Below, piece by piece: positions 1 through 13,774 of a DNA stretch of 29,566 nucleotides. A program made the position numbers and the translations under genes. The DNA comes from an uncultured Candidatus Peribacteria bacterium (lineage in GTDB: Bacteria; Patescibacteriota; Gracilibacteria; UBA1369; LOWO2-01-FULL-3), in the NCBI GenBank assembly GCA_964531125.1, contig CAZHDA010000002.1, forward strand, positions 1 to 29,566, in the 5' to 3' direction. The notes beneath the pieces were generated by a model. The model was not told the origin of the DNA, searched no databases, and saw nothing but the letters and a program-made list of their open reading frames with translations. Numbering within the stretch: position 1 is the first letter of the stretch; every line of letters begins with the position of its first letter.

Positions 1-892
1 CGAAGCCGTGATTTTGGCTTGTGATATAGCAGCGGCCGGTTTCGGTGTCGATGCATGGTTGGTTTTGGGAGCGGTGACCGAATTTGAGTTTATAGGTTTT
101 GGCGCCGGAGGCGAGGGCAAGGATTTGATTGCCAAGACAGATTCCAAAAATCGGTTTTTTGATTTTCATGGCTTTGCGAATGATGTCGTGGAGTGGCGTG
201 AGCACGGCGGGGTCGCCCGGGCCGTTTGAGATGAAGATGCCGTCAAATTTGAGGCCGGCTTCGATAAAATCGTAATTCCATGGGACGCGGATGACGGTGA
301 GGTTGCGGGCGAGTAGGTTTCGTATGATGTTGTTTTTCATGCCGCAGTCGATGCATATGATGGTCTTTTTTCCGCCTTTATAAGTCTTTGGTTTTTTGAT
401 GGAAACTTTGTCCATGAGTGTTTTGTCGAGGTCCGGATTGTAAAAATCCGGCGGTGTGGAATTTTCAATTACGATTTTTCCAAGCATTGTGCCGGTTTCG
501 CGGAGTTTCTGGGTGAGAGCGCGTGTGTCGATGCCGGTGATGGCCGGAATTTTGTTTTCAACGAGCCATTTGGAGAGAGATTTTTTTGCGTCCCAGTGGC
601 TGAAATTTTCCGAATACTCGCTGACGATGAGGCCTTTTATGTGAATCCGACCGCTTTCAAAGCGTTTTTCGATGTGATCTTTGTCAAATTCGTCGGCTCC
701 GACACCGTAATTTCCTATGAGAGGATAGGTTAGAGTGATGATCTGACCTTCGTAGGAAGGATCCGTGAAACTTTCCGGATAGCCGACCATGGACGTGTTG
801 AAAACGACCTCGCCTGCGGAGCTTATAGGTGCTCCGAAGGAGGTTCCTGTGAGTCGGGTCCCGTCCGCAAGGACGAGGGTGGCTTTTGTCAT
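1..892 (-). CDS. carA: Carbamoyl-phosphate synthase small subunit (3' end lies beyond the window edge; absent from the ORF track)
   Basis: Manual translation from ATG 892 gives MTKATLVLADGTRLTG...GEVVFNTSMVGYPESFTDPSYEGQI...SNGPGDP...PIFGICLGNQ...KFGHRSQNQP...TSQNHGF, which are the CPSase small-chain and class I glutamine amidotransferase motifs. An alternative ATG at 901 overlaps the predicted -10 box. Confidence 0.97.
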   Translation of the reverse strand, partial: MTKATLVLADGTRLTGTSFGAPISSAGEVVFNTSMVGYPESFTDPSYEGQIITLTYPLIGNYGVGADEFDKDHIEKRFESGRIHIKGLIVSEYSENFSHWDAKKSLSKWLVENKIPAITGIDTRALTQKLRETGTMLGKIVIENSTPPDFYNPDLDKTLMDKVSIKKPKTYKGGKKTIICIDCGMKNNIIRNLLARNLTVIRVPWNYDFIEAGLKFDGIFISNGPGDPAVLTPLHDIIRKAMKIKKPIFGICLGNQILALASGAKTYKLKFGHRSQNQPCIDTETGRCYITSQNHGF

Positions 893-899
893 CGGAGGC

Positions 900-928
900 A
901 TTTTAGGGATTTGGTAATAGGATTGCAA
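900..928 (-). promoter_or_regulatory. Sigma70-type promoter for carA, probably leaderless
   Basis: Minus strand reads TTGCAA (928-923), 17 nt, TAAAAT (905-900), 7 nt, ATG (892). Confidence 0.7.
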
Positions 929-951
929 GAAGGTATTTTTTGGCGTAGATT
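923..951 (+). promoter_or_regulatory. Sigma70-type promoter for the pyrB operon
   Basis: TTGCAA (923-928), 17 nt, TAGATT (946-951), ending 21 nt upstream of the pyrB ATG. Confidence 0.6.
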
Positions 952-972
952 TCTTTCGGCTAACAAGCATGT

Positions 973-1905
973 ATGAACTTCAAAGGTCAGCACATTCTTT
1001 CTACGAGACAGTTTGATCGGGAAAGTTTAATGGCTCTTTTTGAGCTGGCGGATAAGATGCAGGTGATTTTAGAGAAGGCGAAGAAAGGTAAGCAGGATAT
1101 GACTATGGAAGGGCGTCTTATGGCGACGCTTTTTTTTGAGCCTTCCACTAGGACTAGATTCTCTTTTGAAACAGCGATGCAGAGACTTGGCGGACGGGTG
1201 ATTTCGAATGCGGATATGATGGGAACTTCTTCATGGAAAAAACATGAAACTCTGGAGGATACCGGAAAAGTGGTGTCGCAAATGGCTGATGTCATCGTGA
1301 TGCGGCATCCGGAGGCCGGTTCCGTAAAGAGGCTTGCAAGTGCCAGTGATTCGCCGGTTTTAAATGCCGGAGATGGTCCGGCAGAGCATCCTTCGCAGGC
1401 GCTTTTGGATGTTTATACAATTTGGAAAAATAAAGGAAAACTGGATGGGCTGACGATAGGGATGAGTGGGGATTCCAAGTACGGGCGGGTTCCTCATTCG
1501 CAATGCGATTTGCTGAAACATTTTGATTGTAAATTTATTTTTGTGTCGCCGGAGGCATTGAAAATGCCGGAGGCGATTGTGAAAGCCTTGAAAGAAAGTG
1601 GTCATGAGATAAGGGAAACTGAAAATCTTGGCGAATCGATCGGGGAAATGGATGTAATAGCCTGTACACGAATTCAGGAGGAAAGATTTACGAGCGAAGC
1701 AGAGTATAAAAAATACGCCGGAGTTTATGTTTTGGACAATACTTTAATGCGGAAAGCAAAAAAAGATGCGATTGTCCTGCATCCGCTTCCAAGAGTGAAC
1801 GAAATCTCTCCGGAGGTGGACAAGGATCCGCGGGTTAAATACTTTGAGCAGGTTAAAAATGGTGTGGCCATAAGAATGGCTTTACTCGTTTCAGTCTTAG
1901 GGTAA
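973..1905 (+). CDS. pyrB: Aspartate carbamoyltransferase catalytic subunit
   Basis: Motifs FFEPSTRTRFSFE, VMRHP, NAGDG...HPSQALLD, HPLPRVNEI and RMALL; 310 aa. Confidence 0.98.
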   Translation: MNFKGQHILSTRQFDRESLMALFELADKMQVILEKAKKGKQDMTMEGRLMATLFFEPSTRTRFSFETAMQRLGGRVISNADMMGTSSWKKHETLEDTGKVVSQMADVIVMRHPEAGSVKRLASASDSPVLNAGDGPAEHPSQALLDVYTIWKNKGKLDGLTIGMSGDSKYGRVPHSQCDLLKHFDCKFIFVSPEALKMPEAIVKALKESGHEIRETENLGESIGEMDVIACTRIQEERFTSEAEYKKYAGVYVLDNTLMRKAKKDAIVLHPLPRVNEISPEVDKDPRVKYFEQVKNGVAIRMALLVSVLG

Positions 1906-1909
1906 AATT

Positions 1910-3226
1910 GTGTGGATGAAGAAAGAAAAAATCCTCTTAAAGGGCGGGACGCTGGTGAGTTCAGAGGGCTCGTTTCAAAAAGATTTGTTGATTGAAAATG
2001 GGAAAATTTCTGGCGGCCGGAGTGATGGGGCCGAGGTTATTGATTGTCGTGGAAAGGTGATTTTGCCGGGACTTATCGATGTGCATGTGCATTTTCGCGA
2101 GCCAGGGGCTTCATATAAGGAAGACTGGACAACCGGTTCGAGCGCGGCGGTGGCAGGTGGCGTGACGACTGTCTGTGATATGCCAAACAATAAACCTGCC
2201 ATAGTCAGCGTGGATGAACTGGAGAAAAAAAGAGCGCTGATCAAAGGCAGGAGTTATTGTAATTATGGTCTTTATATAGGCTATGACGGAAAAAATTTGG
2301 AGGAGATTAAAAAAGCGAAAAATGTGGCTGGTGTAAAAGTCTATGTGGCCAATTCAACGGGAAATATGGGCGTTGATAACGCGGCTTTGGAAAAACTTTT
2401 CAAGGAATTTGACGGAAGAATTGTGACCCATGCCGAGGATGAAGGTATCATTGAAAAAAATTCCAAAGAGTTTTTAGCTGAATTTGATGGCAGGGAAGTT
2501 GATCCCGCGGTTCATTCAAAAATTCGTAGCGTGGAAGCAGCGGAGAGCGCGGTGAAGCTGGTTTGTAAACTGGCAAAAAACAGCAAGGCAAAGCTGCATG
2601 TGGCTCATGTTTCCTGCGATGCGGAGATTGAGGTGATCGCTGAATATAAGAAATTTGGAATTACTTGTGAAGTTGCGCCGCATCATTTGCTTCTTTCCGA
2701 TGATGATTATGAAATCTGGAAAAATTTTATCAAAGTGAATCCGCCGGTGAGGAGTCGGCTGGATGTGTTCTCGATGTGGAAAAATCTGAAATTTGGAGTG
2801 ATAGACATGATCGCCACCGATCACGCGCCGCATACGATAGAGGAAAAGGAGCAGTCATATGAAAAAGCTCCGTCGGGCGTGCCGGAGCTGGATACTCTGT
2901 TGCCGATTTTTTTGAATACGGTAAATGACGAGGGGATGACGATCGAGGAATTGGTTGGATATTTGTGTGAAAAGCCGGCGCAGATTTTTGGAATAAAAAA
3001 TAAAGGCTTTTTGAAGGATGGATTTGACGCGGATATCGTGGTTGTGGACATGGATTTGGAGAGGAAAGTGGAAAGGGCAAATTTGAGGACAAAATGCGGC
3101 TGGTCGCCATATGAGGGTAGCAATTTTAAGGGCTGGCCGGTGATGACTTTTGTGGGAGGGGAGCTGGTTTTTGAGGCGGGAAAAATTGTTGGGAAAAAAG
3201 CCGGGAAAGAGGTAAAGTTTGAATGA
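1910..3226 (+). CDS. pyrC: Dihydroorotase (start may be ATG 1916)
   Basis: PGLIDVHVHFREPG (HxH), GGVTTVCDMPN, THAEDE, LHVAHVS, KVNPPVR and ATDHAPH, in pyr operon context. Confidence 0.96.
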   Translation: MWMKKEKILLKGGTLVSSEGSFQKDLLIENGKISGGRSDGAEVIDCRGKVILPGLIDVHVHFREPGASYKEDWTTGSSAAVAGGVTTVCDMPNNKPAIVSVDELEKKRALIKGRSYCNYGLYIGYDGKNLEEIKKAKNVAGVKVYVANSTGNMGVDNAALEKLFKEFDGRIVTHAEDEGIIEKNSKEFLAEFDGREVDPAVHSKIRSVEAAESAVKLVCKLAKNSKAKLHVAHVSCDAEIEVIAEYKKFGITCEVAPHHLLLSDDDYEIWKNFIKVNPPVRSRLDVFSMWKNLKFGVIDMIATDHAPHTIEEKEQSYEKAPSGVPELDTLLPIFLNTVNDEGMTIEELVGYLCEKPAQIFGIKNKGFLKDGFDADIVVVDMDLERKVERANLRTKCGWSPYEGSNFKGWPVMTFVGGELVFEAGKIVGKKAGKEVKFE

Positions 3227-3236
3227 TAAAAATTTT

Positions 3237-4157
3237 ATGGCAAACCTTTCGGTAAATTTCTGCGGAGTGGAGTTCAAAAATCCGACTGTGCTGGCTTCGG
3301 GTGTGCTTGGAGTGACCGCCAGCAGTTTGAAGAACGCGGTGCGATGCGGGGCGGGAGGGGTGACCACGAAGTCGATTTGGGTCGGTGGAAATCAGGGGCA
3401 CAGAAATCCGACAATGTTTGGGACGGAGCATTATTTTATGAATGCGGTGGGGCTTTCGGACGCGGGGATGGAAAAAGCCGCGGAGGAAACTTTTCCGGAA
3501 TATTTGAAAAACAAGCCTGCGCCGATAATTGGAAATGTGGTGGCGGCGAGTGTGGGGGATTTTGCGGCGGTGGTGGCAAAAATCGACAAATGCGGGCCGG
3601 ATATAATTGAAGTAAATATTTCTTGTCCGAATGTGGAAGATCAGTTTGGGAAGCCGTTTGCGTGCAGTGCAGCGAGTGCGGCGGAGGTGACGAAGATTGT
3701 GCGAAGAAGGACTAAAAAACCGCTTATCATAAAGCTGTCGCCGAATGTGGATAATATCGGAGAGATCGCAAAGGCGTGTGCGGCGGAGGGGGCGGACGGG
3801 TTTTGCGCGGTGAATACTTTTGGGCCTGGGATGGGGATAGATATTGATTTGAGGCGGCCGATTTTGGCAAATAAAGTGGGCGGAGTTTCCGGTCCGGGGA
3901 TGAAACCGCTGGCGCTGAAGTGCGTGTATGATGTTTATAAGGCGACGGGTTTGCCGATTATCGGGACAGGAGGAGTGATGACCGGAGCTGATGTGATAGA
4001 GATGATGATGGCCGGAGCGCGGCTCGTTGGGATCGGGACGATGGTTTACTACAGAGGAGTTGAGGGATTTGGGGAGATCGTAAAAGAGATGATGGAGTGG
4101 TGTGAAAGAAATGGCGTGAAAAAAATTGAGGAGATTATTGGGAGTGTAAAAATGTAA
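3237..4157 (+). CDS. pyrD: Dihydroorotate dehydrogenase family 1B catalytic subunit (ORF track starts at TTG 3219; ATG 3237 preferred)
   Basis: KNPTVLASG, TTKS, MNAVGL, EVNISCPN (catalytic Cys), IKLSPN, GGVSG and IIGTGG; adjacent to pyrK. Confidence 0.97.
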   Translation: MANLSVNFCGVEFKNPTVLASGVLGVTASSLKNAVRCGAGGVTTKSIWVGGNQGHRNPTMFGTEHYFMNAVGLSDAGMEKAAEETFPEYLKNKPAPIIGNVVAASVGDFAAVVAKIDKCGPDIIEVNISCPNVEDQFGKPFACSAASAAEVTKIVRRRTKKPLIIKLSPNVDNIGEIAKACAAEGADGFCAVNTFGPGMGIDIDLRRPILANKVGGVSGPGMKPLALKCVYDVYKATGLPIIGTGGVMTGADVIEMMMAGARLVGIGTMVYYRGVEGFGEIVKEMMEWCERNGVKKIEEIIGSVKM

Positions 4158-4159
4158 TT

Positions 4160-4984
4160 ATGGATTTAAAAAAATTTGATTCGCGGCCGGTGGCGCTGGC
4201 GATTCAAAAAATCATCAAGGAAAATGAAAATACGAATACGTATATTTTCAAGTATCCTCTGGGCAGCAAGCCCGGGCAATTTGTGATGATGTGGATTCCC
4301 GGAGTGGATGAGAAGCCCTTTTCGGTGGCATATGATGATGGCAAAGAATTTTGGCTGACGATATGCAATGTGGGCGGGGCGACGGCAAAGCTTTTTGAGC
4401 TGAAGGTTGGTGACAAAGTGGGAATTCGTGGGCCGATGGGGACGAGTTATGAATTCAAAAAAGGTGAGAGGATCGCGACTGTGGCCGGAGGGTATGGCGC
4501 GGCGCCGATGTATTTTGTGGCGCGGACGGCAAAGAGTTGCAAGGTGGATTTTATCGTCGGGGCGAGAAATAAAAAATTATTGCTTTTTATTGATCGCGTG
4601 AAAAAACTTAAAAATGTGAAGGTGCATGTGGCGACGGACGACGGATCGGCGGGCGTAAAGGGCTACAATACGGTTGTTTTGGATGAAATTCTAAGCAAGA
4701 AAAAAATCGATCGTGTGTTTGCCTGCGGTCCGGAAGTGATGGAATACGCGGTGGGAAAAGTGGTGGACAAACATTCCAAAAAGAAAAAAATAAACTGCGC
4801 GGTGTCGGTGGAAAAATATATGAAATGCGGGATCGGCGTGTGCGGTCAGTGTGCGATCGACGATACAGGCGAATTGGCTTGTATAAAGGGGCCTGTGATG
4901 GATTGGAATTATCTAAAAAAGTTGCCGGAATTCGGGCAGTATCATCGTGACGCGCAAGGGAAGAAACATTATTTTCGAAAATAA
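4160..4984 (+). CDS. pyrK: Dihydroorotate dehydrogenase electron-transfer subunit (FAD, 2Fe-2S)
   Basis: PGQFVM, EKPFSV, GIRGPMG, VAGGYG, TDDGS, ACGP and the cluster motif EKYMKCGIGVCGQC...C. Confidence 0.96.
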   Translation: MDLKKFDSRPVALAIQKIIKENENTNTYIFKYPLGSKPGQFVMMWIPGVDEKPFSVAYDDGKEFWLTICNVGGATAKLFELKVGDKVGIRGPMGTSYEFKKGERIATVAGGYGAAPMYFVARTAKSCKVDFIVGARNKKLLLFIDRVKKLKNVKVHVATDDGSAGVKGYNTVVLDEILSKKKIDRVFACGPEVMEYAVGKVVDKHSKKKKINCAVSVEKYMKCGIGVCGQCAIDDTGELACIKGPVMDWNYLKKLPEFGQYHRDAQGKKHYFRK

Positions 4985-4998
4985 TTTAACCTAAAAAT

Positions 4999-5652
4999 AT
5001 GAAACAGTATAAGAAAGATTTTATCGAATTTCTGGTGAGGGCTGACGCACTGAAATTTGGCGAGTTTACGCTGAAAATCGGGCGCAAGGCTCCATATTTT
5101 TTGAATGTCGGGAGTTTTTATACGGGAGAGTTTGTGCATGAGTTGGGGAAATATTATGCGGCGGCTTTGATGGATACCGGTGTGGAGTGCGATGTGGTTT
5201 TTGGTCCGGCGTATAAGGGAATTCCACTGGCTGTACTGACTGTTGAAGCGCTTTACGATCAACATAAGAAGAATTTTGCCTATTCATTTAACAGGAAGGA
5301 AGCAAAAGATCATGGTGAAGGAAAGATGCTTGTTGGGGCGCCTTTGAATGAAAATACGAAAGTGTTTTTGATAGATGATGTGGTGACCGCCGGGACGGCT
5401 GTTCGCGAGACCGTGGAAATTTTAAAAGCGAATGGAAATCCGAGGATTGTAGGTGTGCTGATCGCGATGAACAGAATGGAAAAGAACAACGAGGGTAAAA
5501 ATGCGATTGCGGAGCTGGAGGAGATGCTTGATGCGAAAGTCTATTCGATTGTTGATTTAGATGATGTGGTTGAGGTTTTGAAAGACACTTTGGGCGAGGA
5601 AAAAATGGCTGCGATAAGAGAATACAGGGAGGAATATGGGATCAAAGCTTGA
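4999..5652 (+). CDS. pyrE: Orotate phosphoribosyltransferase
   Basis: LKFGEFTLK, FGPAYKGIP, flexible loop FNRKEAKDHGEG and PRPP motif LIDDVVTAGT. Confidence 0.97.
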   Translation: MKQYKKDFIEFLVRADALKFGEFTLKIGRKAPYFLNVGSFYTGEFVHELGKYYAAALMDTGVECDVVFGPAYKGIPLAVLTVEALYDQHKKNFAYSFNRKEAKDHGEGKMLVGAPLNENTKVFLIDDVVTAGTAVRETVEILKANGNPRIVGVLIAMNRMEKNNEGKNAIAELEEMLDAKVYSIVDLDDVVEVLKDTLGEEKMAAIREYREEYGIKA

Positions 5653-5692
5653 CGCTGTATACGGCATGGGATTATACTGTATACGGTATAAT
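5649..5692 (+). promoter_or_regulatory. Internal promoter with palindromic operator for the TA pair (and possibly pyrF)
   Basis: TTGACG (5649-5654, overlapping the pyrE stop), 18 nt, TATACT (5673-5678); a second TATAAT lies at 5687-5692. CTGTATACGG occurs at 5655-5664 and 5677-5686, the second inside the near-perfect 20-bp palindrome TTATACTGTATACGGTATAA (5672-5691). Confidence 0.7.
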
Positions 5693-5705
5693 TTAAATTG
5701 CCTGT

Positions 5706-5957
5706 ATGGTACGGACACAACTGTATTTGCCGGATGATATGTATAAAGCTTTGAAGGCTCAAGCAAAAGCGCAAAATATGACTTTTGCTTCTTATGTCAG
5801 GGTGTATTTGGAGAAAGAGGCGATGAAGGATAAAAATCAAAAGTCTCTAAATGAGGCTTATCCGTTTATGAAGGTGGCCGAAGATATGAGAAAGGCTGGA
5901 TTTTCCCTTTCCAATCTTACCAATGAAGATATTGATAACGCTGTTTATGGGTTCTAA
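5706..5957 (+). CDS. VapB-like antitoxin with ribbon-helix-helix/CopG-type N-terminus
   Basis: 83 aa. The N-terminus MVRTQLYLPDDMYKALKAQAKAQNMTFASYVRVYL fits the RHH beta-alpha-alpha pattern, the tail is acidic, and it overlaps the downstream PIN gene. Confidence 0.85.
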   Translation: MVRTQLYLPDDMYKALKAQAKAQNMTFASYVRVYLEKEAMKDKNQKSLNEAYPFMKVAEDMRKAGFSLSNLTNEDIDNAVYGF

Positions 5958-6363
5958 AAAAATATTTGTGGATAGTGGAGGTTTTTTGGCTTTATTAGAC
6001 GATAATGTGCTTTTGCGAAATAAGGTTGTGGATATCCTAAATCAATCGAGGCAAACAGGTGTTCAGTTAGTGACTACGGATTCCGTGATTGGGGAGGTTT
6101 TGACTCTTTTGAGATGTAGGGAAAAAATTCCAACGAAATTGGTGCTCGATTTTATCCAAGGCGCTTTGTTTGCGGAGATTGAGCTGGTCGGTATTTCAAG
6201 GGCACTTTTTGGTGAAGCGTTGGCGATGATGCAAAAATATGCCGATCAGTATTTCAGCTTTACGGATTGTGTGAGCTTCAAAGTGATGAAGGATATGAAA
6301 ATCAAGGATGTAATTACAATAGACAAACATTTTACTATTGCCGGATTTAATGTTTTAATTTGA
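5947..6363 (+). CDS. vapC: VapC-family PIN-domain toxin (ATG 5947 preferred over 5923)
   Basis: All four acidic PIN residues are present: IFVDSG, SVIGEVLT, FSFTDCVSF, ITIDKHF..AGF. It overlaps the antitoxin stop by 11 nt. Confidence 0.9.
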   Translation: MGSKKIFVDSGGFLALLDDNVLLRNKVVDILNQSRQTGVQLVTTDSVIGEVLTLLRCREKIPTKLVLDFIQGALFAEIELVGISRALFGEALAMMQKYADQYFSFTDCVSFKVMKDMKIKDVITIDKHFTIAGFNVLI

Positions 6364-6366
6364 GCG

Positions 6367-7311
6367 ATGGCAAATAATTTCGCGGACAGATTGATGGCGG
6401 CGATCAAAGAAAAGGGGACGCCGATTTGCGTAGGATTGGATCCGAGATTGGAGCAGATCCCGGATTTTCTAAAAAAGAAAGCTTTGGCCGAGACCGAGGG
6501 GGGTCCGATGCGTGCGGCGGCAGAAGCTATTTTAGTTTTTAATAAAGGCATAATTGACGCTGTATATGAGATTGTCCCGGTCGTAAAACCGCAGATCGCT
6601 TTTTATGAAATGTTTGGGGCGGACGGGGTTTGGGCTTATGAAGAGACTTTGAAATATGCAAAATCGAAGGGATTACTCACGATTGCAGATGCAAAAAGAA
6701 ACGATATCGGGTCGACGGCGGAGGGCTACAGTAAGGCATTTTTGGGCGAGGTGGTTGTTTTTGGCGGCGAGGATGAGGTGATCATGCCGGTTTTCGATGC
6801 GGACGCGATTACTATAAATGCGTATCTGGGCTGGGATGGAGTGAAGCCTTTTTTGGAAGAGGCGAAAAAATATGGCAAGGGTGTGTTTATTTTGGCTAAA
6901 ACTTCAAACAAAAGCAGTGGCGATTTGCAGGATTTGGAACTAAAAAATGGCAAGACGGTTTATGAAATTATGGGGCATTTAATTGACAGCTGGGGTGCGG
7001 ATGAGATTGGTGAAAGCGGTTATAGCTCTGTTGGTGCAGTGGTTGGAGCGACTTATCCGGAGCAGGCGGCGAAATTGAGGGCGATTATGCCAAATGCTGT
7101 GTTTTTGGTTCCCGGATACGGGGCGCAGGGTGGTGGAGCGAAAGATGTGTTACCTTGTTTTGGAAAAGATGGAATGGGTGCGATAGTGAACAATAGTCGT
7201 GGAATTATTTTTGCGTATGAAAAGATGCCGGAATTCGGGCCGGAAAAATACGATGAGGCTGCCAAAAAAGCCGTGTTGGATATGAAGAGGGATCTTGCAA
7301 GCGTGCTCTAG
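6367..7311 (+). CDS. pyrF: Orotidine-5'-phosphate decarboxylase (long, subfamily-2 type)
   Basis: ICVGLDP, VKPQIAFYE, DAKRNDIGST (DxKxxD), GAVVGAT, LVPGYGAQGG and VNNSRGI. Confidence 0.97.
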   Translation: MANNFADRLMAAIKEKGTPICVGLDPRLEQIPDFLKKKALAETEGGPMRAAAEAILVFNKGIIDAVYEIVPVVKPQIAFYEMFGADGVWAYEETLKYAKSKGLLTIADAKRNDIGSTAEGYSKAFLGEVVVFGGEDEVIMPVFDADAITINAYLGWDGVKPFLEEAKKYGKGVFILAKTSNKSSGDLQDLELKNGKTVYEIMGHLIDSWGADEIGESGYSSVGAVVGATYPEQAAKLRAIMPNAVFLVPGYGAQGGGAKDVLPCFGKDGMGAIVNNSRGIIFAYEKMPEFGPEKYDEAAKKAVLDMKRDLASVL

Positions 7312-8090
7312 TTTCTCGAAATTATTTTCCAATCTTTTATCGATAAGTCTTCGGGTCTCAAGTTTGGATTTATTTCCGGCGTGAGATTTTTGAAAGTGTG
7401 TGAAAGCTTTTTGCGCTTGTGGGTGAAGGCGAGTTTTGCGAGAGAGAGAATTTTTTGCGCTTCGTCGTCGGAGATTGGATCTTTGAGTGGTGTTATTTGG
7501 AGAATGGCAGACTCGACTTTTGGAGCGGGGAAAAAGTTGCCGGCCGGGACGCGTTTTATAAGTTTGGCGTTTGCGAATAGCGCTACCTGAAGAGACAGAA
7601 TGGAGTGTTTTGGTTTCTTGGAATGAAAAGGCTGAGTGATTTTATCGGCGACTTCTTTTTGAACCAAAATGGTCATTGAAACCGGTTTGTTTTTTGAATG
7701 TAAGAAGTGTGTCAGAAGTGGGGAAGTGATGTTGTAAGGAATGTTTGCGACTATCTTGTACTCAGTTTTCGGTGGAGTAAATTTGAGCGCATCCATGTGA
7801 ATGAGTTCAAAATTTTTCTGATTTGAAAAGCGTTCTTTGAGAATCGGGACGAGGTGATTGTCCAATTCGATCGAGGTGACTTTTTTGGCTTTCTTCAGCA
7901 GCTCTTCCGTGAGGACGCCGAGGCCAGGGCCTATTTCAATTATGTGATCGGTGGATTTGATATCCGCTGCGTTAATTATACTCGCGAGAATTCCGGTGTT
8001 TATTAAAAAATTTTGTCCAAATCTTTTTTTTGTAAATAAGCCTTGTGATTGTAGAAATTCAACGAGAGTTTTTTTGTCAGTAAGATTCAT
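7308..8090 (-). CDS. rsmA: 16S rRNA m6,2A1518/1519 dimethyltransferase KsgA/RsmA
   Basis: KKRFGQNFL, IEIGPGLG, IELD, VANIPYNIT, VQKEVA and FFPAPKVES. Confidence 0.97.
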   Translation of the reverse strand: MNLTDKKTLVEFLQSQGLFTKKRFGQNFLINTGILASIINAADIKSTDHIIEIGPGLGVLTEELLKKAKKVTSIELDNHLVPILKERFSNQKNFELIHMDALKFTPPKTEYKIVANIPYNITSPLLTHFLHSKNKPVSMTILVQKEVADKITQPFHSKKPKHSILSLQVALFANAKLIKRVPAGNFFPAPKVESAILQITPLKDPISDDEAQKILSLAKLAFTHKRKKLSHTFKNLTPEINPNLRPEDLSIKDWKIISRN

Positions 8091-8334
8091 CTTTTATTTT
8101 AACTAATTTTATTCGATCGGTTTTTCCTGCAATTATTGAAATCCGCTCAGTGCTTATCCCCAGTTCTTTCCCTAAAAACTTTGTCAGTTCCGTGTTTGCT
8201 TTCCCATGTTCCGGGACCGCTTTTACACGGATTTTAATGGTTCCGTCATCAAGAATTTCAACAGTCTCTGTTTTGGCTGATTTTGGAATTACTTTGATTC
8301 TGAGATAATTATTTCGCGGAATTTGAATGGTCAT
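8077..8334 (-). CDS. DUF167/YggU-family protein
   Basis: IKVIPKS...IKIRVKAVPEHGKANTELTKFL...ISIIAGKTDRIK matches the DUF167 pattern; 85 aa. Confidence 0.9.
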   Translation of the reverse strand: MTIQIPRNNYLRIKVIPKSAKTETVEILDDGTIKIRVKAVPEHGKANTELTKFLGKELGISTERISIIAGKTDRIKLVKIKDESY

Positions 8335-10102
8335 TTCGACGCTTGAGGTAACGCAATATTTCAGTTGCTATGATGATTAGGCCTATCACGAACAATCCTA
8401 TTTCCCAATCTATGAGAGATATCGTGCTTAAGCCAATGTAGTCGCTGATTATCGGAAATCCTGTGAGCAGATATATTACCAAAAATATGATAATTGCAGT
8501 AAGAGGCAGATATGGGTTTGAAGACATCTTTTTTCGGAATATGGATTTTTTGTGACTGCGAATACTATAGGCCGTGAGGATTTGCATCATTGCCAAAACG
8601 AGCAAATTAACCGTAGCTATTTTTTGTATGACACCATCGGCGATTGGCGTTTCGTTGCCAAAGATCCATCCATAGCGATATAGATTGAAAAAATAAATCA
8701 ATGTAAAGATTAGTCCGTAAAAAATTCCGTAGCGTAATATCCGGTCGGATTCAATTTTAGTATTGATTTTTTCGTATACCTGCCGCACAACTTTTTGTCC
8801 TACTTTATCCCACTTAAGCGATAATTCCAGGCTTAGGTTTATTACTAAATCAACTATCAAAAGACTTACGATCGTGAAGGGGAGGGGTGCTCCAACGACG
8901 ATGGAGGTTGCTATGCATATAAGTGCGATGATCTTGCCGATGAGCGAATGTGAGATGTATTTTTTTGCATTTAACTTGTGAGCCCTTTCTTTGATTATGC
9001 CTTGAAGTACATGTTTTAGCCCATTTCCGATTTCTTTGTTTGCTATCGCCACCGTTTCTCCGTTTTGGCGGAAATTTTCCATGATTTTGATTTTGTCCTG
9101 CTCTGAAATTTCGGCAAAAACGAAATCTTTTTCTTTGTTGGAGATTACTTTGTTGAGACGCTTTTCAGGATTTTGTTCGAGCTCTGATCCAATTATACTC
9201 TCAAAATAATTTTGGTTGATGATTCCCAGCTCCAGTCCTGCCGAGGTGGCTTGTTTTTCTTTTGCCGCTGTCGTGATATAGATTTTTACCCCTATTTCTT
9301 TCGCCAATTCAATGCTTGGCTTCAGGTCGGTATTAACCGGATTGCTTAGACCGATTATCCCCAAAAATATGAGATCATTTTCAGTGAAATTTTCAGAATA
9401 GTGATCCAGTCGTTTTAGCGGCAGGCCTTTATACGCAAACCCTATCATTTTTTGTCCGTCCCGTTCCATGTTCTTTATGAGTTTGCGAATTTTTGCTTTT
9501 TCGGCCGGATCCATCTCCATTTTTTTTCCTGAAATCGAAAACCGTGTGCATTTTTCAATCAAGCTTGATGGGTGACCTTTGGAAAAGGCAAAAATTTCCT
9601 TTGTGTCGTTTTTTATCGCCACTATTGTAGATATTTTTTTTTCCGGATCTGACGGGATTTTTTCAATAACTTCGTAGTCGGCTTCGATTTTGTGTTTGCC
9701 AAAGCCACATTCCAGGAAAAACTTGTTGATGATTTTTTCAAGTTCTGCGACTTTTTGGTAAGAGCACAGATTTCCGCAAATCGCCATGAATTCTGCATTT
9801 TTTCTGTTTTTGAGTTCCGATTTCTCCAGACGGACAGTTTCTTTTGTGTCACGATTTTCAAATTCGAAAAGTTTTTTTGTAATATCTATTTTTATGTATT
9901 CGTTTATGAGTTCGACGCTTTTTACATTGAGATCATCGCGCGTAAGTGTGCCGGTCAGATCACTGCAAATAATTGTTGTGTTGGCCAGATGTGGATCATG
10001 TGTCCCAAAGATATTTCCAAAATAACGAATAAGTATCAGGCTTATTGGCGTGCCTGCAAACAGAATTATCAGTAATGTATTGATGATGTTTATTTCCGTC
10101 AT
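8309..10102 (-). CDS. Truncated, catalytically degenerate type II P-type ATPase homolog (TM4 + P/N domains + TM5-10; no actuator domain)
   Basis: TTIICSDLTGTLT in place of DKTGT, FSKGHP, LIFLGIIGLSNP in place of DPPR, ITTAAK in place of TGDN, GDGxND segment deleted, C-terminal hydrophobic helices retained; uninterrupted 597-aa ORF. Confidence 0.85.
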   Translation of the reverse strand: MTEINIINTLLIILFAGTPISLILIRYFGNIFGTHDPHLANTTIICSDLTGTLTRDDLNVKSVELINEYIKIDITKKLFEFENRDTKETVRLEKSELKNRKNAEFMAICGNLCSYQKVAELEKIINKFFLECGFGKHKIEADYEVIEKIPSDPEKKISTIVAIKNDTKEIFAFSKGHPSSLIEKCTRFSISGKKMEMDPAEKAKIRKLIKNMERDGQKMIGFAYKGLPLKRLDHYSENFTENDLIFLGIIGLSNPVNTDLKPSIELAKEIGVKIYITTAAKEKQATSAGLELGIINQNYFESIIGSELEQNPEKRLNKVISNKEKDFVFAEISEQDKIKIMENFRQNGETVAIANKEIGNGLKHVLQGIIKERAHKLNAKKYISHSLIGKIIALICIATSIVVGAPLPFTIVSLLIVDLVINLSLELSLKWDKVGQKVVRQVYEKINTKIESDRILRYGIFYGLIFTLIYFFNLYRYGWIFGNETPIADGVIQKIATVNLLVLAMMQILTAYSIRSHKKSIFRKKMSSNPYLPLTAIIIFLVIYLLTGFPIISDYIGLSTISLIDWEIGLFVIGLIIIATEILRYLKRRNDHSNSAK

Positions 10103-10106
10103 GTGG

Positions 10107-10754
10107 TTATTTTAGTTTGGAGTTACGCCATTTTTCGATTTTTTCGTGATGTCCGGAGAGTAGAATTTCCGGGACTGATTTGCCTTTAAAAACGGCTGGG
10201 CGTGTGTAGTGCGGGTATTCTTTTTTTCTCTTTAGTGATTTTGAAAATGAATCTTCAAGGTGTGACGCTTTTTTCCCAAGAACTCCAGGGATGAGGCGAG
10301 AGACACTATCTACCAATATCATCGCAGGAAGCTCACCACCGGTTAAAACATATTCTCCGATCGAAATTTCTTCATCAACCATCAAATCGCAAATTCGTTG
10401 ATCAATTCCTTCATAACGACCACAGATCAAAATAATTCCCTTTGGTTTTTTTGCCAGTTTCTCAACTTTGATTTGTGTCAATGTTTTGCCCTGAGGCGTG
10501 AGATAAATCACCGGTCCTTTGTTTAGTTTTTTTACGGCTTTGATAGAATCGTATAGTGGCTGCGGGGTCATGACCATTCCGGCGCCACCTCCAAATGGGA
10601 CATCATCAACCTTACGATGTTTGTCTTTGGAATATTTGCGAATATCGTGAATTACAACGCTAATCAGCTTCTTCGAGATAGCGCGTTTTATAATGCTCTC
10701 TTTCAGATATGAGTCAAAAATTTCCGGAAAAATGGTGAGAATATCAAAGCGCAT
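10107..10754 (-). CDS. trmD: tRNA (guanine37-N1)-methyltransferase
   Basis: MRFDILTIFPE, VDDVPFGGGAGMVM, ICGRYEGIDQR, ISIGEYVLTGGE, EYPHYTRP and VPEILLSGHH. Confidence 0.99.
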   Translation of the reverse strand: MRFDILTIFPEIFDSYLKESIIKRAISKKLISVVIHDIRKYSKDKHRKVDDVPFGGGAGMVMTPQPLYDSIKAVKKLNKGPVIYLTPQGKTLTQIKVEKLAKKPKGIILICGRYEGIDQRICDLMVDEEISIGEYVLTGGELPAMILVDSVSRLIPGVLGKKASHLEDSFSKSLKRKKEYPHYTRPAVFKGKSVPEILLSGHHEKIEKWRNSKLK

Positions 10755-13282
10755 TATTGAACGAATTTATTTATGATGTTTTTAATTCCCGGGACGAGAA
10801 ATGCCGTGGAGGCAAGCAAGAGTAAAACAATCCACTCATATGGGTCAAGCGGTGTTGTTTCGAAAATTTTCTGCATGAATGGAGTGTACACCATTATTAA
10901 TTGAAGTATCAGGGAAATAATTACCGCAAGGACCAGTGAATGATTTGTGAAAATCGTTTTGAAATTAAGCTTTTTTTCGCTTTGGCAAACAAATGCAAAG
11001 AGAAGTTCAAATAGCACGATTTCCGTAAAAACCATTGTTCTTGCGTGTTCGATGTCATGGAAAGTGAGGCCATAAAAATAACTTATTGATGTTGCGATGG
11101 TTGTTACCACTATTGTTGAAATAATAAAGCCTTTGAATTTTTTTATTATATTTTCTTCTTTTGGTCGCGGTTTTTCAGTCATGCTTCCTGTTTCGCCCGG
11201 AGAGTTTCCTAGCGCGAGTGCCGGTAAAGCGTCGGTCGCAATATTGATCCAGAGTATTTGAAGTGGGATTAACGGCATTGGATGACCAAAAATAGTTAAA
11301 AGGCCGACGATGACGATCGTGTCGAAATTTACCGAAATCATATATTTTATGAACGCCAGAATATTTTTGTAAATGCGTCTTCCTTCTTCAATTGTCGCTA
11401 CAATCGTGGAAAAATTGTCATCTTTTAAAACGATGTCAGCGACTTCTTTTGTGGCTTCCGTGCCTTTTATGCCCATGGCTATTCCAACATCAGCGTGTCT
11501 GAGCGCTGGAGCGTCATTTACTCCATCTCCCGTGACGGCTACTATTTCTTTATTCCTTTTTAAGATATTGACTATGCGGTATTTGTGTATAGGTGATGTG
11601 CGTGCGAAGACATCGGTTTCGTAAATGCGTTTTTTTAGTTCCGAATCTGACATTTTATCTATTTCCTCTCCTGTGGTGACGCGGACCGTTTTTAGCCCTA
11701 TTTTTTCGGCTATGGCACGGGCAGTGAACGGATTGTCTCCGGTTATGATCTTTATCATGATACCGGCTTCTATTGCGATTCTAATTGATTCCGCCACTGT
11801 GTCACGGGGAGGGTCCAGCATGGCCACCAGTCCGACAAAAACCAATTTTTCTTCATCAAAAATGCCGGTCCAATCCTTGAAGGCTATGGCTAAAACGCGC
11901 AACGCGTCGGTTGCATAATTTTTGTTTTGAGCTGCAAGTTTTTTTCTGTCCAGCGTTGTAATTTTTCTGATTTTCCCATTGATCATGATTCGATCACACC
12001 TCTTTATTATTTCTTCAAAGGCTCCTTTTGCGAAAATCTCTTTTTTACCTTCTACGCTATGAAGAGTGCTCATCATTTTTCTTTCAGAACTGAATGTTTG
12101 TTCGTCCAGTTTTTTGTGGCTAGCTGTTTTTCCGCTTTTTAGAGCCAAAATTTTGAGTGCGATTTCAGTGGGATCGCCGAGCGGATTTTTTTCCACGAAG
12201 GCATTGTTGCAATTCTCGGCGATCTCAATAAGTCGTTTTTCGTTGAGATTTCTGATTTGAAATTTTTCTGTCGCGTTATATCCGACTCCTTCAATTTTCC
12301 TATCTTCAAAATTCGTGTAGATTCCCGTCACCGTCATTTCGTTCAGAGTTAGTGTGCCGGTTTTGTCGCTGCAAATTACGGTTGTGGCTCCTAAAGTTTC
12401 GATGGAATTCATTTTTCTGACTATGGCATTTTTTGCAGATAAGATTTGAACGCCCATGGCCAAAGTCAAAGTCACTATTATTGGCATTCCTTCCGGAATA
12501 GCGGAAACACCCAAAGCCACAGAAGTCATGAACATTTCAACGACTGAAATCTCTCTTATAAATCCTATAATGAAAATTATAAGTGAAATTGAAACAATTA
12601 GGATCGCCAGTTTTTTGCCAAGATTGTTTAGCTGAAGATTGAGAGGGGAGTCCGACTTCTCGGCTTTTGATACAAGTTTTACTATTTTGTCGAATGAAGT
12701 GTTTTTGCCCGTGGCCGTGACTTTGGCGGCGCAGCGCCCGGATGTTATGATTGTCCCTTTAAATAAAAGGTTCTCTTTGTTTTTCCCTTTGGCAGATTTT
12801 TGTGTAGTCGCTGATTCGCCGGTAAGCGCGGATTCGTCAACTTGGAGCGAAAAGCTTTCTATGATTTCCATATCGGCCGGAATTTTGTCTCCTTCCGAGA
12901 GTAAAACAATGTCATCAGGTACAAGTTCCCTGGACGGAATTTCGGTCTTTTTTCCGTCGCGCAGGACGATTGTTCTTGAGATAACCATCTTTTTTAGAGA
13001 TGCAACTGCGTTTTCCGCTTTATACTCCTGAATAAATCCAATCAATGCATTTATCAGAACCACGCCAAAAATCGCCATGCTATTCGTATATTCCTTTAGA
13101 AAAATCGATATGATGCCCGTAATTATAAGGATCACGATCAATAGTGATCCAAATTGCGAAGCCAGAATTTTAAGCCACTGGAAGTGTTTTTTGATTATGA
13201 TTTCATTGTAGCCGAATTTGGCCAAACGGCTTTTTACTTCAGCAGTCGAAAGACCCTTTTCTAAGTATAAGGAACTTTTCAT
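10754..13282 (-). CDS. Type II (Ca2+-ATPase-like) cation-transporting P-type ATPase
   Basis: All catalytic motifs are intact: LTGES, PEGMP, CSDKTGTLT, KGAFE, DPPR, ITGDN, TGDGVNDAP, TM6 WINIATD; 842 aa. The transported ion is inferred. Confidence 0.96.
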   Translation of the reverse strand: MKSSLYLEKGLSTAEVKSRLAKFGYNEIIIKKHFQWLKILASQFGSLLIVILIITGIISIFLKEYTNSMAIFGVVLINALIGFIQEYKAENAVASLKKMVISRTIVLRDGKKTEIPSRELVPDDIVLLSEGDKIPADMEIIESFSLQVDESALTGESATTQKSAKGKNKENLLFKGTIITSGRCAAKVTATGKNTSFDKIVKLVSKAEKSDSPLNLQLNNLGKKLAILIVSISLIIFIIGFIREISVVEMFMTSVALGVSAIPEGMPIIVTLTLAMGVQILSAKNAIVRKMNSIETLGATTVICSDKTGTLTLNEMTVTGIYTNFEDRKIEGVGYNATEKFQIRNLNEKRLIEIAENCNNAFVEKNPLGDPTEIALKILALKSGKTASHKKLDEQTFSSERKMMSTLHSVEGKKEIFAKGAFEEIIKRCDRIMINGKIRKITTLDRKKLAAQNKNYATDALRVLAIAFKDWTGIFDEEKLVFVGLVAMLDPPRDTVAESIRIAIEAGIMIKIITGDNPFTARAIAEKIGLKTVRVTTGEEIDKMSDSELKKRIYETDVFARTSPIHKYRIVNILKRNKEIVAVTGDGVNDAPALRHADVGIAMGIKGTEATKEVADIVLKDDNFSTIVATIEEGRRIYKNILAFIKYMISVNFDTIVIVGLLTIFGHPMPLIPLQILWINIATDALPALALGNSPGETGSMTEKPRPKEENIIKKFKGFIISTIVVTTIATSISYFYGLTFHDIEHARTMVFTEIVLFELLFAFVCQSEKKLNFKTIFTNHSLVLAVIISLILQLIMVYTPFMQKIFETTPLDPYEWIVLLLLASTAFLVPGIKNIINKFVQ

Positions 13283-13289
13283 CAGGTTG

Positions 13290-13318
13290 ATTCTACCAGA
13301 TTTCTAACGCTTGCTGAA
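13290..13318 (-). promoter_or_regulatory. Candidate extended -10, leaderless promoter for the ATPase-trmD cluster
   Basis: TGgTAGAAT (13298-13290) lies exactly 7 nt before ATG 13282, with a weak -35 TTCAGC at 17-nt spacing. Confidence 0.4.
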
Positions 13319-13774
13319 TTGTGGAGCACGACGGGCACGGTGTAGACCGAACTTCTTGCGCTCTTTGATGCGTGAGTCACGAGTAAGCATGCCTACGCGC
13401 TTTAGAGTAGGTTTCGAAAGTGGATCCGCTTCGATTAGTGCTTTTGAAACTCCATGGCATACCGCGTCGGCTTGTGAACTGATGCCTCCGCCTATAACTT
13501 TTGCGCTGATATCGTACTTATTTTCCACGCCTGTTAGTTTGAGAGGGGATCTGACAACGCCAACCAATGTTTTGATCGGAAAATATTCATTTACCGGGCG
13601 GCCGTTGATCTTTATCTCCCCGCTGCCTTTTGAAAGGTAAACTTTAGCTATAGATGTTTTTCTTTTGCCTTTAGCGTAAAAATACTTGCCACTGATTCTT
13701 GTCGGAGTATCAATTTGCGGCTCTGATTTTACTTTTGCTGATTTTTTTGTGGCGGTAGCTTTTTTTGTAGGCAT
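13304..13774 (-). CDS. rpsI: 30S ribosomal protein S9 with Lys-rich N-terminal extension
   Basis: GKRKTSIAKV, GGGISSQADA, LTRDSRIKERKKFGL and RAPQFSKR. Confidence 0.99.
   Translation of the reverse strand: MPTKKATATKKSAKVKSEPQIDTPTRISGKYFYAKGKRKTSIAKVYLSKGSGEIKINGRPVNEYFPIKTLVGVVRSPLKLTGVENKYDISAKVIGGGISSQADAVCHGVSKALIEADPLSKPTLKRVGMLTRDSRIKERKKFGLHRARRAPQFSKR

Follow-up and report, generated by a model that had tools for sequence, protein, structure and literature searches.

A conserved relic of a P2-type ATPase beside an intact cation pump in Candidatus Peribacteria: a putative pseudoenzyme

The locus and its dismantled ATPase gene

The DNA analyzed here, referred to as the window, is a whole stretch of 29,566 nucleotides (positions 1 to 29,566 of contig CAZHDA010000002.1, assembly GCA_964531125.1) from an uncultured Candidatus Peribacteria bacterium, whose genome assembly of 0.89 Mb is 90% complete. 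On the minus strand of the window, the genes are arranged in the order rplM, rpsI, a cation pump (P0002), trmD, a P-type ATPase-like gene (P0001), DUF167 and ksgA, and pyrF lies on the opposite strand (Table 1). The subject of this study is P0001, hereafter referred to as the relic. A reading of the sequence alone, without database searches (the sequence-only reading), had described it as a catalytically dismantled ATPase that starts 4 nt after trmD and shares 26 nt with DUF167, and both junctions are present in the sequence. The gap between trmD and the relic is 0–4 nt in most loci, and the overlap with the start of DUF167 is kept in the same way when the slot is occupied by a full-length ATPase (X, see below) instead of the relic.

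The same reading placed the beginning of the open reading frame (ORF) at the fourth transmembrane helix (TM4), with TM1–3 and the actuator (A) domain missing. This is confirmed by both the alignment and the Pfam scan that had been proposed as a check. Two domains alone exceeded their cut-offs in P0001: the N-domain model PF13246 (27.7 bits; cut-off 21.7) and PF00689 (Cation_ATPase_C, 81.9 bits; cut-off 27.3). The Hydrolase domain stayed under its cut-off (17.8 bits against 26.4), and the scan gave no match to E1-E2_ATPase (PF00122) or Cation_ATPase_N (PF00690). In the pump P0002, every P-type Pfam domain is present, and all of the motifs are intact in 24 pump orthologues. The NCBIfam model TIGR01494 (cut-off 62.3 bits), which scores 305.7 bits for the pump and 330 bits for X, was not among the matches of P0001 at E ≤ 1e-10.

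The relic is 26% identical to P0002, and this identity is confined to the phosphorylation (P) and nucleotide-binding (N) domains. The alignment recovered each of the motif changes that the sequence-only reading had listed. In the window copy, DKTGT is changed to DLTGT (the Leu codon being CTG), TFSSERK to PSDPEKK, DPPR to NPVN, TGDN to TAAK, and NIATD of TM6 to DLVIN; the PEGMP region is cut to one Pro by a 6-residue deletion, and GDGxND has disappeared within a deletion of 32 alignment columns, as it has in all 26 orthologues. The losses are common to the family: the A domain with its TGES, the Glu of PEGxP, the Lys of DKTGT (now I, L or V), DPPR, TGD and GDGxND are absent from 26 of the 26 aligned relics. 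The phosphorylated Asp, which had been regarded as kept, does exist in the window copy (D48), but its column is variable among the 26 orthologues (N in 10, P in 5, D in 3, and others in the rest). Since the Asp survives in only three relics, the window copy included, D48 is not a sign of residual chemistry.

Judged by these features, the relic fails the sequence tests of a functional P-type (E1-E2) ATPase of the HAD-IC subfamily, and is predicted to be catalytically dead and incapable of running the P-type cycle. By descent, it can nevertheless be assigned to the P2-type ATPases from PF13246, PF00689, the fold match and its nesting in the clade of X. The labels that such genes carry at present, "cation transporting ATPase" or "Ca2+-/Mg2+-transporting ATPase", are functionally wrong.

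An AlphaFold2 model of the relic, built from the family alignment, reached a predicted local distance difference test score (pLDDT) of 90.9 and a predicted template modeling score (pTM) of 0.83. In it, P-like and N-like domains accompany seven TM helices, and the chain kinks at P19. In a Foldseek search, the best matches were P2 pumps in E2-type states (template modeling score 0.73–0.78, E 1e-28), while the E1-ATP states fitted worse (0.53–0.57). The closest solved structure by sequence is that of Listeria LMCA1 (6zhf/6zhh, E 1.9e-22). In the P and N domains and TM4–10, the relic has the same fold as the P2A Ca2+-ATPases (LMCA1, and also SPCA1 and SERCA) and the Na,K- and H,K-ATPases, with scores of 0.71–0.78 to the E2-type states. 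Unlike all of these, however, the relic has no A domain, no TM1–3, no conserved phospho-Asp and no Mg2+-binding GDGxND, and it has seven TM helices rather than ten.

Trivial causes of the truncated form were ruled out. No upstream extension of the frame is possible, the maximal open frame itself beginning at TM4. An alternative genetic code was considered (some relatives are labeled Gracilibacteria), and every gene of the window is intact under table 11. Misassembly at the trmD junction is contradicted by the same junction in more than 40 independent assemblies, and a split pump, with the A domain and TM1–3 encoded elsewhere, by the fact that the only two A-domain matches of the genome (90% complete) both lie inside full-length genes.

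Table 1. Positions of the relic, its parts and the neighboring genes in the window
Feature	Position	Strand	Basis
Pseudo-ATPase gene (the relic, P0001, 597 aa): TM4, degenerate P domain, N domain, TM5–TM10	8309..10102	minus	ORF, Pfam, family alignments, AlphaFold2
TM4 remnant, residues 5–33; kink at invariant P19, Glu of PEGxP deleted	10004..10090	minus	Alignment; AlphaFold2 helices 6–17 and 20–32
Degenerate phosphorylation motif CSDLTGTLT, residues 46–54	9941..9967	minus	Sequence; Asp column variable, Lys changed to I/L/V in the family
N (nucleotide-binding) domain, residues 59–250	9353..9928	minus	Alignment of 65 sequences
N-domain residues 141–250, best conserved part of the relic	9353..9682	minus	Per-domain identity 0.51, against 0.58 in the active pump
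Second half of P domain, residues 251–360; without DPPR and TGD; GDGxND and about 32 residues deleted	9023..9352	minus	Alignment
Stalk and TM5–TM10, residues 361–597; K390 (TM5), D418/N422/E426 (TM6), RYGW (TM7-8 loop), Q507 (TM8)	8312..9022	minus	Alignment, AlphaFold2
trmD (tRNA m1G37 methyltransferase), directly upstream of the relic	10107..10754	minus	Pfam PF01746
Intact P2A-like cation pump (P0002, 842 aa), separate paralogue between rpsI and trmD	10754..13282	minus	All Pfam domains
DUF167/YggU gene	8077..8334	minus	Pfam PF02594
ksgA/rsmA (16S rRNA dimethyltransferase), end of the conserved block	7308..8090	minus	Pfam PF00398; synteny
rpsI, final ribosomal-protein gene ahead of the point where the pump was inserted	13304..13774	minus	Synteny

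Distribution and origin from a full-length ATPase

A word-indexed search provided 22 relic orthologues of 562–612 aa with 33–78% identity, and the score dropped from 295 to 106 bits between the last of them and the first full-length pumps. An exhaustive search of 50%-identity representatives enlarged the family to about 60 clusters (550–612 aa). The members belong to Candidatus Peregrinibacteria/Peribacteria. When a profile of the relic was applied to 201 sampled genomes of the order, the family of the window alone showed the truncated form, i.e., an open frame of about 557–619 aa that matches the whole profile. In this family, 48 of the 51 other genomes match the profile, five of these 48 carrying a full-length version, and the relic is spread across dozens of genera of this one Peregrinibacteria family. 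In the other families of the order, the profile matches as two pieces within ORFs of 850–1000 aa.

The origin of the relic is settled by the gene order. Throughout the order, the block rplM-rpsI-trmD-[X]-DUF167-ksgA-pyrF (the last on the opposite strand) is found, where X is an ATPase of 895–963 aa (loci L045–L051 and L054–L056), and three genera of the window's own family (L013–L016) also have this block with full-length X. The rest of this family shows rpsI-[pump, about 855 aa]-trmD-[relic, about 585 aa]-DUF167-ksgA. The slot between trmD and DUF167 that X fills elsewhere is exactly the one that the relic fills here, which makes the relic the positional orthologue of X. The synteny with trmD that the sequence-only reading had asked about is conserved, with the relic in this slot across most of the family and X in it across the order. 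A full-length ATPase at this locus in relatives had also been named in advance as a finding that would speak against a selected pseudoenzyme. Such ATPases literally exist, but they explain where the relic came from and leave the evidence for selection unrefuted.

Maximum-likelihood (ML) trees of the ATPases (71 and 86 rows) gave three noteworthy features. One is that the relics form one clade (support 100), which is nested within the clade of X (100). Another is that the sister of the relic clade is the X of the same family (support 96–97), with a stem of 1.1–1.2 substitutions per site on the relic side. The last is that the pumps form a separate clade (99–100), with the f5 and f7 family ATPases as its sister group. 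From the synteny and the trees together, the neighboring pump is not the parent of the relic, being instead a second paralogue inserted upstream of trmD; the earlier judgment that the relic is unlikely to be a recent duplicate of its neighbor thus holds.

The starts of the relics agree within a few residues among the members, and the 32-column deletion is common to all of them, both of which point to a single truncation event. One clean deletion appears to have removed about 310 codons (the N-terminus, TM1–3 and the A domain) in the ancestor of most genera of the family, and a P2A-like pump related to those of the sister families was placed between rpsI and trmD. Sister genera still have the active ancestor X at the same locus, so that the steps of this retirement can be read directly. 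The X genes (for example, L013:7702-10458 and L045:3912-6740) resemble the relic in occupying the trmD-DUF167 slot and in carrying KGxP, FAYK, the RYGW-containing TM7-8 loop and the TM8 Gln. They differ from it in that the N-terminus, TM1–3, the A domain with TGES, PEGLP, DKTGT, DPPR, TGD and GDGxND are all intact, and in that they pass TIGR01494. In the alignment, KGxP, FAYK and the RYGW loop of the relic are inheritances from X. The observation that the TM7-8 loop has no counterpart in the neighboring pump was accordingly correct, but the loop is not a novelty of the relic.

Two observations concern this locus in the other families of the order (L045–L056 and L062–L064). A cation pump is lodged permanently between a tRNA and an rRNA methyltransferase gene across the whole order, and the stop of the ATPase usually overlaps the start of DUF167. 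One lineage (L004/L005, 6426-7349) has an extra gene of 307 aa of the auxin-efflux-carrier family (Mem_trans, PF03547) between the pump and trmD.

Selection on the relic and its persistence without the pump

The ratio of nonsynonymous to synonymous substitution rates (dN/dS) was calculated by the Nei–Gojobori method for ten pairs of related genomes. The values were 0.04–0.14 for the relic, 0.05–0.10 for the pump, 0.02–0.15 for trmD and 0.04–0.19 for ksgA, all of them rough because dS is high (0.7–2) and near saturation in most pairs; the least saturated pair gave 0.13 for the relic. These values are far from about 1, the value that would have been expected without selection on the protein. In one clade, the relic is even better conserved (85–91% identity) than the pump (78–86%). 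Purifying selection is accordingly as strong on the relic as on its housekeeping neighbors. Having lost its catalytic residues while being selected as a protein, and with intact orthologues numbering more than 40, it answers to the definition of a pseudoenzyme, and the proposal of a selected pseudoenzyme by the sequence-only reading is borne out by the conserved family of 550–612 aa and by the similarity of its dN/dS to those of trmD, ksgA and the pump.

These data bear on the possibility that the gene is a pseudogene in decay, or that the ORF is retained solely to space the translational coupling of DUF167 and ksgA. All of the catalytic motifs are gone, as such a possibility would have it, and two orthologues appear disrupted: that of L040 (5971-7588) is frameshifted, with the TM5 region deleted and pieces of 361 and 145 aa left, and that of G097 (G097:C6:8455-10167) contains one in-frame TGA. 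The damage in both could be lineage-specific decay or assembly errors. An apparent split of the relic in L039 proved to be a run of N, not a frameshift. However, more than 40 genomes, each about 1 Mb in size, still contain open frames of 550–612 aa, even though the pairwise identity goes down to about 25–33%, and the low dN/dS and the confident AlphaFold2 model point in the same direction. The pseudogene or spacer explanation is hardly credible and is already refuted by the selection data.

Among other roles, the sequence-only reading favored that of a partner of the co-encoded 842-aa pump, for instance as its regulatory subunit. Most genomes of the family do carry the two genes in one compact block, and the tree places the gain of the pump and the truncation of X in the same region. 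Nevertheless, relics without the pump were repeatedly found. In genus g4 (six genomes, 98–100% complete), there is no P0002-type pump, the locus reads rpsI-trmD-relic-DUF167-ksgA with the relic intact, and the only other P2 pump is 31–34% identical and located elsewhere in the genome. Genome G129 has no intact pump and an intact relic downstream; between its rpsI and trmD, a 62-aa ORF (L067, G129:C2, 6766-6954) that resembles the pump's A domain (PF00122 positions 10–60, E 1e-12) is the remnant of a pump deletion. In genus g12 (L068, G142:C9, 7517-10065), the pump and DUF167 are both absent from the locus and the relic directly overlaps ksgA. G043 also has an intact relic without a P0002-type pump, and in G089, which is 99% complete and has an intact relic, no P2-type pump of any kind was found. 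In the relic tree, these five pump-less lineages fall at five separate places among pump-bearing relatives, which means that the pump was lost independently at least five times.

The constraint on the relic did not change after these losses. Within the pump-less g4, its dN/dS is 0.095–0.115, the same as those of trmD and ksgA, and the relative-rate comparisons detected no acceleration of the relic beyond its neighboring genes after pump loss. In the other direction, families f5 and f7 have pump-type ATPases related to P0002 and no relic. An obligate partnership is thus largely refuted by the gene contents, and the relic does not depend on the pump. A facultative version, in which the relic serves as a regulatory or hetero-oligomeric subunit only where the pump is present, is very unlikely for the same reasons. 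The known small regulators and subunits (Na,K-ATPase beta and FXYD, sarcolipin and phospholamban, Cdc50, and KdpF) are likewise membrane proteins encoded or expressed together with a P-type pump, and theirs is the role first proposed for the relic. They are, however, small, are not homologues of the pump and are useless without it, while the relic persists in its absence. A complex prediction for the relic with DUF167 (682 residues, own alignments) gave a score of 0.00, which speaks neither for nor against binding.

Constraint on the nucleotide pocket and candidate functions

To see where selection sits, the divergence of each segment of the relic is expressed relative to that of the active pump, both proteins being taken from one set of 21 genomes. 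The ratio was 9.7 for the phosphorylation segment, 4.7 for TM6, 2.7 for TM5, 2.5 for TM4 and 2.4 for TM8. For N-domain residues 141–250, it was 1.17, the least among the segments compared. In an alignment of 65 relic sequences, K175, G176, G216, K218, P228, K230 and Y235 are invariant, and E122, K155 and K156 are conserved in at least 90% (the position of K156 being Lys in 25 of 26 relics). Four of the seven invariant residues constitute the KG and G-x-K pocket motifs; the KG of the N domain, which had been noticed as kept in the window copy, is thus K175–G176. The pocket residues of the relic match the KGx motif, the Arg of the xLR motif (now Lys, K218), the (R/K)K motif and the Glu of the DPTE motif in the N domains of P-type ATPases. 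In the pump, the DPTE Glu, F397, K402, K419–G420 and R462 presumably correspond to the ATP contacts E442, F487, K492, K515 and R560 of SERCA. A basic charge on the cytoplasmic side was considered as a hint of nucleic-acid binding and dropped, the active pump of the same genomes being equally basic.

The ion site shows a different kind of change. The Asn of TM5 is replaced by Lys or Arg in 25 of 26 relics (K390 itself in 23), the Asn/Asp pair of TM6 is swapped to D418/N422, E426 is new, and the Gln of TM8 is kept. These positions are well conserved: Asp or Glu at 418 in 25, N422 in 22 and Q507 in 24 of 26 relics. A comparable replacement of an ion-coordinating TM5 residue by Lys is known in P2C pumps, namely K791/K794 of the gastric/non-gastric H,K-ATPase and the alpha2KK form of the Artemia Na,K-ATPase (PDB 8k1l), and in the relic, as in these, the Lys would be expected to serve as a built-in cation. 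The P2C proteins still pump, with an altered stoichiometry, while the relic lacks the whole catalytic apparatus.

The explanation that accounts best for these data, for which as a whole we estimate a probability of about 0.45, is that the relic, a dead descendant of X as shown above, acts as a membrane-anchored nucleotide-binding module. A nucleotide-binding module is favored because selection now falls mostly on that half of the N domain which holds the nucleotide pocket, and the ion path is relaxed. The function as such, a membrane-anchored module that binds a nucleotide and does not hydrolyze it, is somewhat less probable and is put forward tentatively. In this mechanism, TM4–TM10 (seven helices) would mainly serve as an anchor, the built-in Lys of TM5 would stand in for a bound cation, and the N domain would still bind ATP, ADP or a related phosphorylated ligand through E122, K155/K156, K175–G176 and K218. 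The binding might be reported or used through a partner other than the pump. The nucleotide sensor that the sequence-only reading gave as one alternative fits the conservation pattern in that the Lys, Gly and Glu of the pocket are kept, but the adenine-stacking Phe is not: the residue corresponding to F397 of the pump is a variable S, T or E in the relics. Several further points weigh against a nucleotide-binding module with a simple anchor. No output domain or partner of the relic was found in the analyses. The polar residues in the membrane (K390, D/E418, N422 and Q507) are conserved beyond what a pure anchor would need, and an anchor does not account for the invariant Gly-Trp of the external TM7-8 loop (G478 and W479) either. 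The two damaged orthologues and the near-saturated dS described above are to be counted on the same side.

The conserved intramembrane residues may suggest instead an ion sensor, a channel or a leak, in which the remodeled TM5/TM6/TM8 site (K390, D418, N422, E426 and Q507) binds or conducts a cation or protons without coupling to ATP; the loss of TM1–3 would open the TM4/5/6 site sideways. Yet TM4, TM5, TM6 and TM8 are where constraint fell most among the compared segments relative to the active pump (2.4–4.7 times) apart from the phosphorylation segment, the residue equivalent to E771 is Ala in the window copy, and, judging from K791 and alpha2KK, a Lys that takes over from the TM5 Asn should occupy the site rather than open it. 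Since the helices of the ion path are the most relaxed part of the membrane region, the uncoupled leak pathway suggested by the sequence-only reading is disfavored, and the whole group of ion-related roles is very unlikely. A protein-docking scaffold without any nucleotide deserves more consideration. Here, partners such as envelope or episymbiosis machinery would dock onto two surfaces, the conserved N-domain face (KGxP...GQK...FAYKGLPxKR...Y) and the RYGW loop outside the cell, and the membrane part would be an anchor only. The same conservation pattern applies to it, the loss of the adenine-stacking Phe agrees with it, and so does the invariance of G478 and W479 in 22 sequences, both inherited from X. 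On the other hand, the invariant residues are the phosphate- and adenine-contacting Lys and Gly of P-type N domains and not a new surface, and no partner gene co-varies with the relic in the loci examined. We regard the scaffold, both in its surfaces and in its supposed partners, as unlikely, though less so than the ion-related roles.

Whatever its nature, the relic must have a new, non-pumping job. Genomes of about 1 Mb shed useless DNA, yet these have held on to 1.8 kb of dead-pump sequence in dozens of genera, which points to a function that is worth finding. Few membrane enzymes are as well understood as the P-type ATPases, and the relic family is a natural experiment on them: TM4–TM10 and the N domain can be stable and selectable without TM1–3, the A domain and the phosphorylation chemistry. 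It is a doubtful but attractive idea that a pump was retired here into a signaling or scaffolding protein, its N domain and TM4–TM10 having been turned into a pump-independent ATP/ADP-binding module. In our literature searches, no conserved bacterial pseudo-ATPase derived from P-type ATPases and nothing relevant on the ATPases of Peribacteria were found; if the idea is true, no bacterial P2-type pseudo-ATPase would have been described before the relic. A bolder version, which ties the relic to the maturation of the ribosome or tRNA or to the energy state of the cell, is extremely unlikely.

Several minor observations were also made in and around the window. The genome's only other P-type ATPase is a 768-aa ORF without Cation_ATPase_C (G000:C14:6172-6729, L009), presumably a P1B heavy-metal pump, and the relatives carry similar ATPase genes of 757–786 aa. 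Between the pyrE-like gene and pyrF, a 146-aa ORF (5923-6363, plus strand) has no Pfam match and is absent from the matching position in most related loci. Finally, the two parts of the window differ in base composition: in 1-8000, which contains the plus-strand pyrimidine-biosynthesis genes, the GC skew ranges from +0.25 to +0.43, which is strongly positive, and the G+C content is 0.42–0.51, while in 8000-29566, which contains the minus-strand ribosomal block, the skew is about 0, not negative, and the G+C content is 0.37–0.46. This skew pattern does not come from the coding strand alone, because the coding-strand effect alone would give opposite signs.

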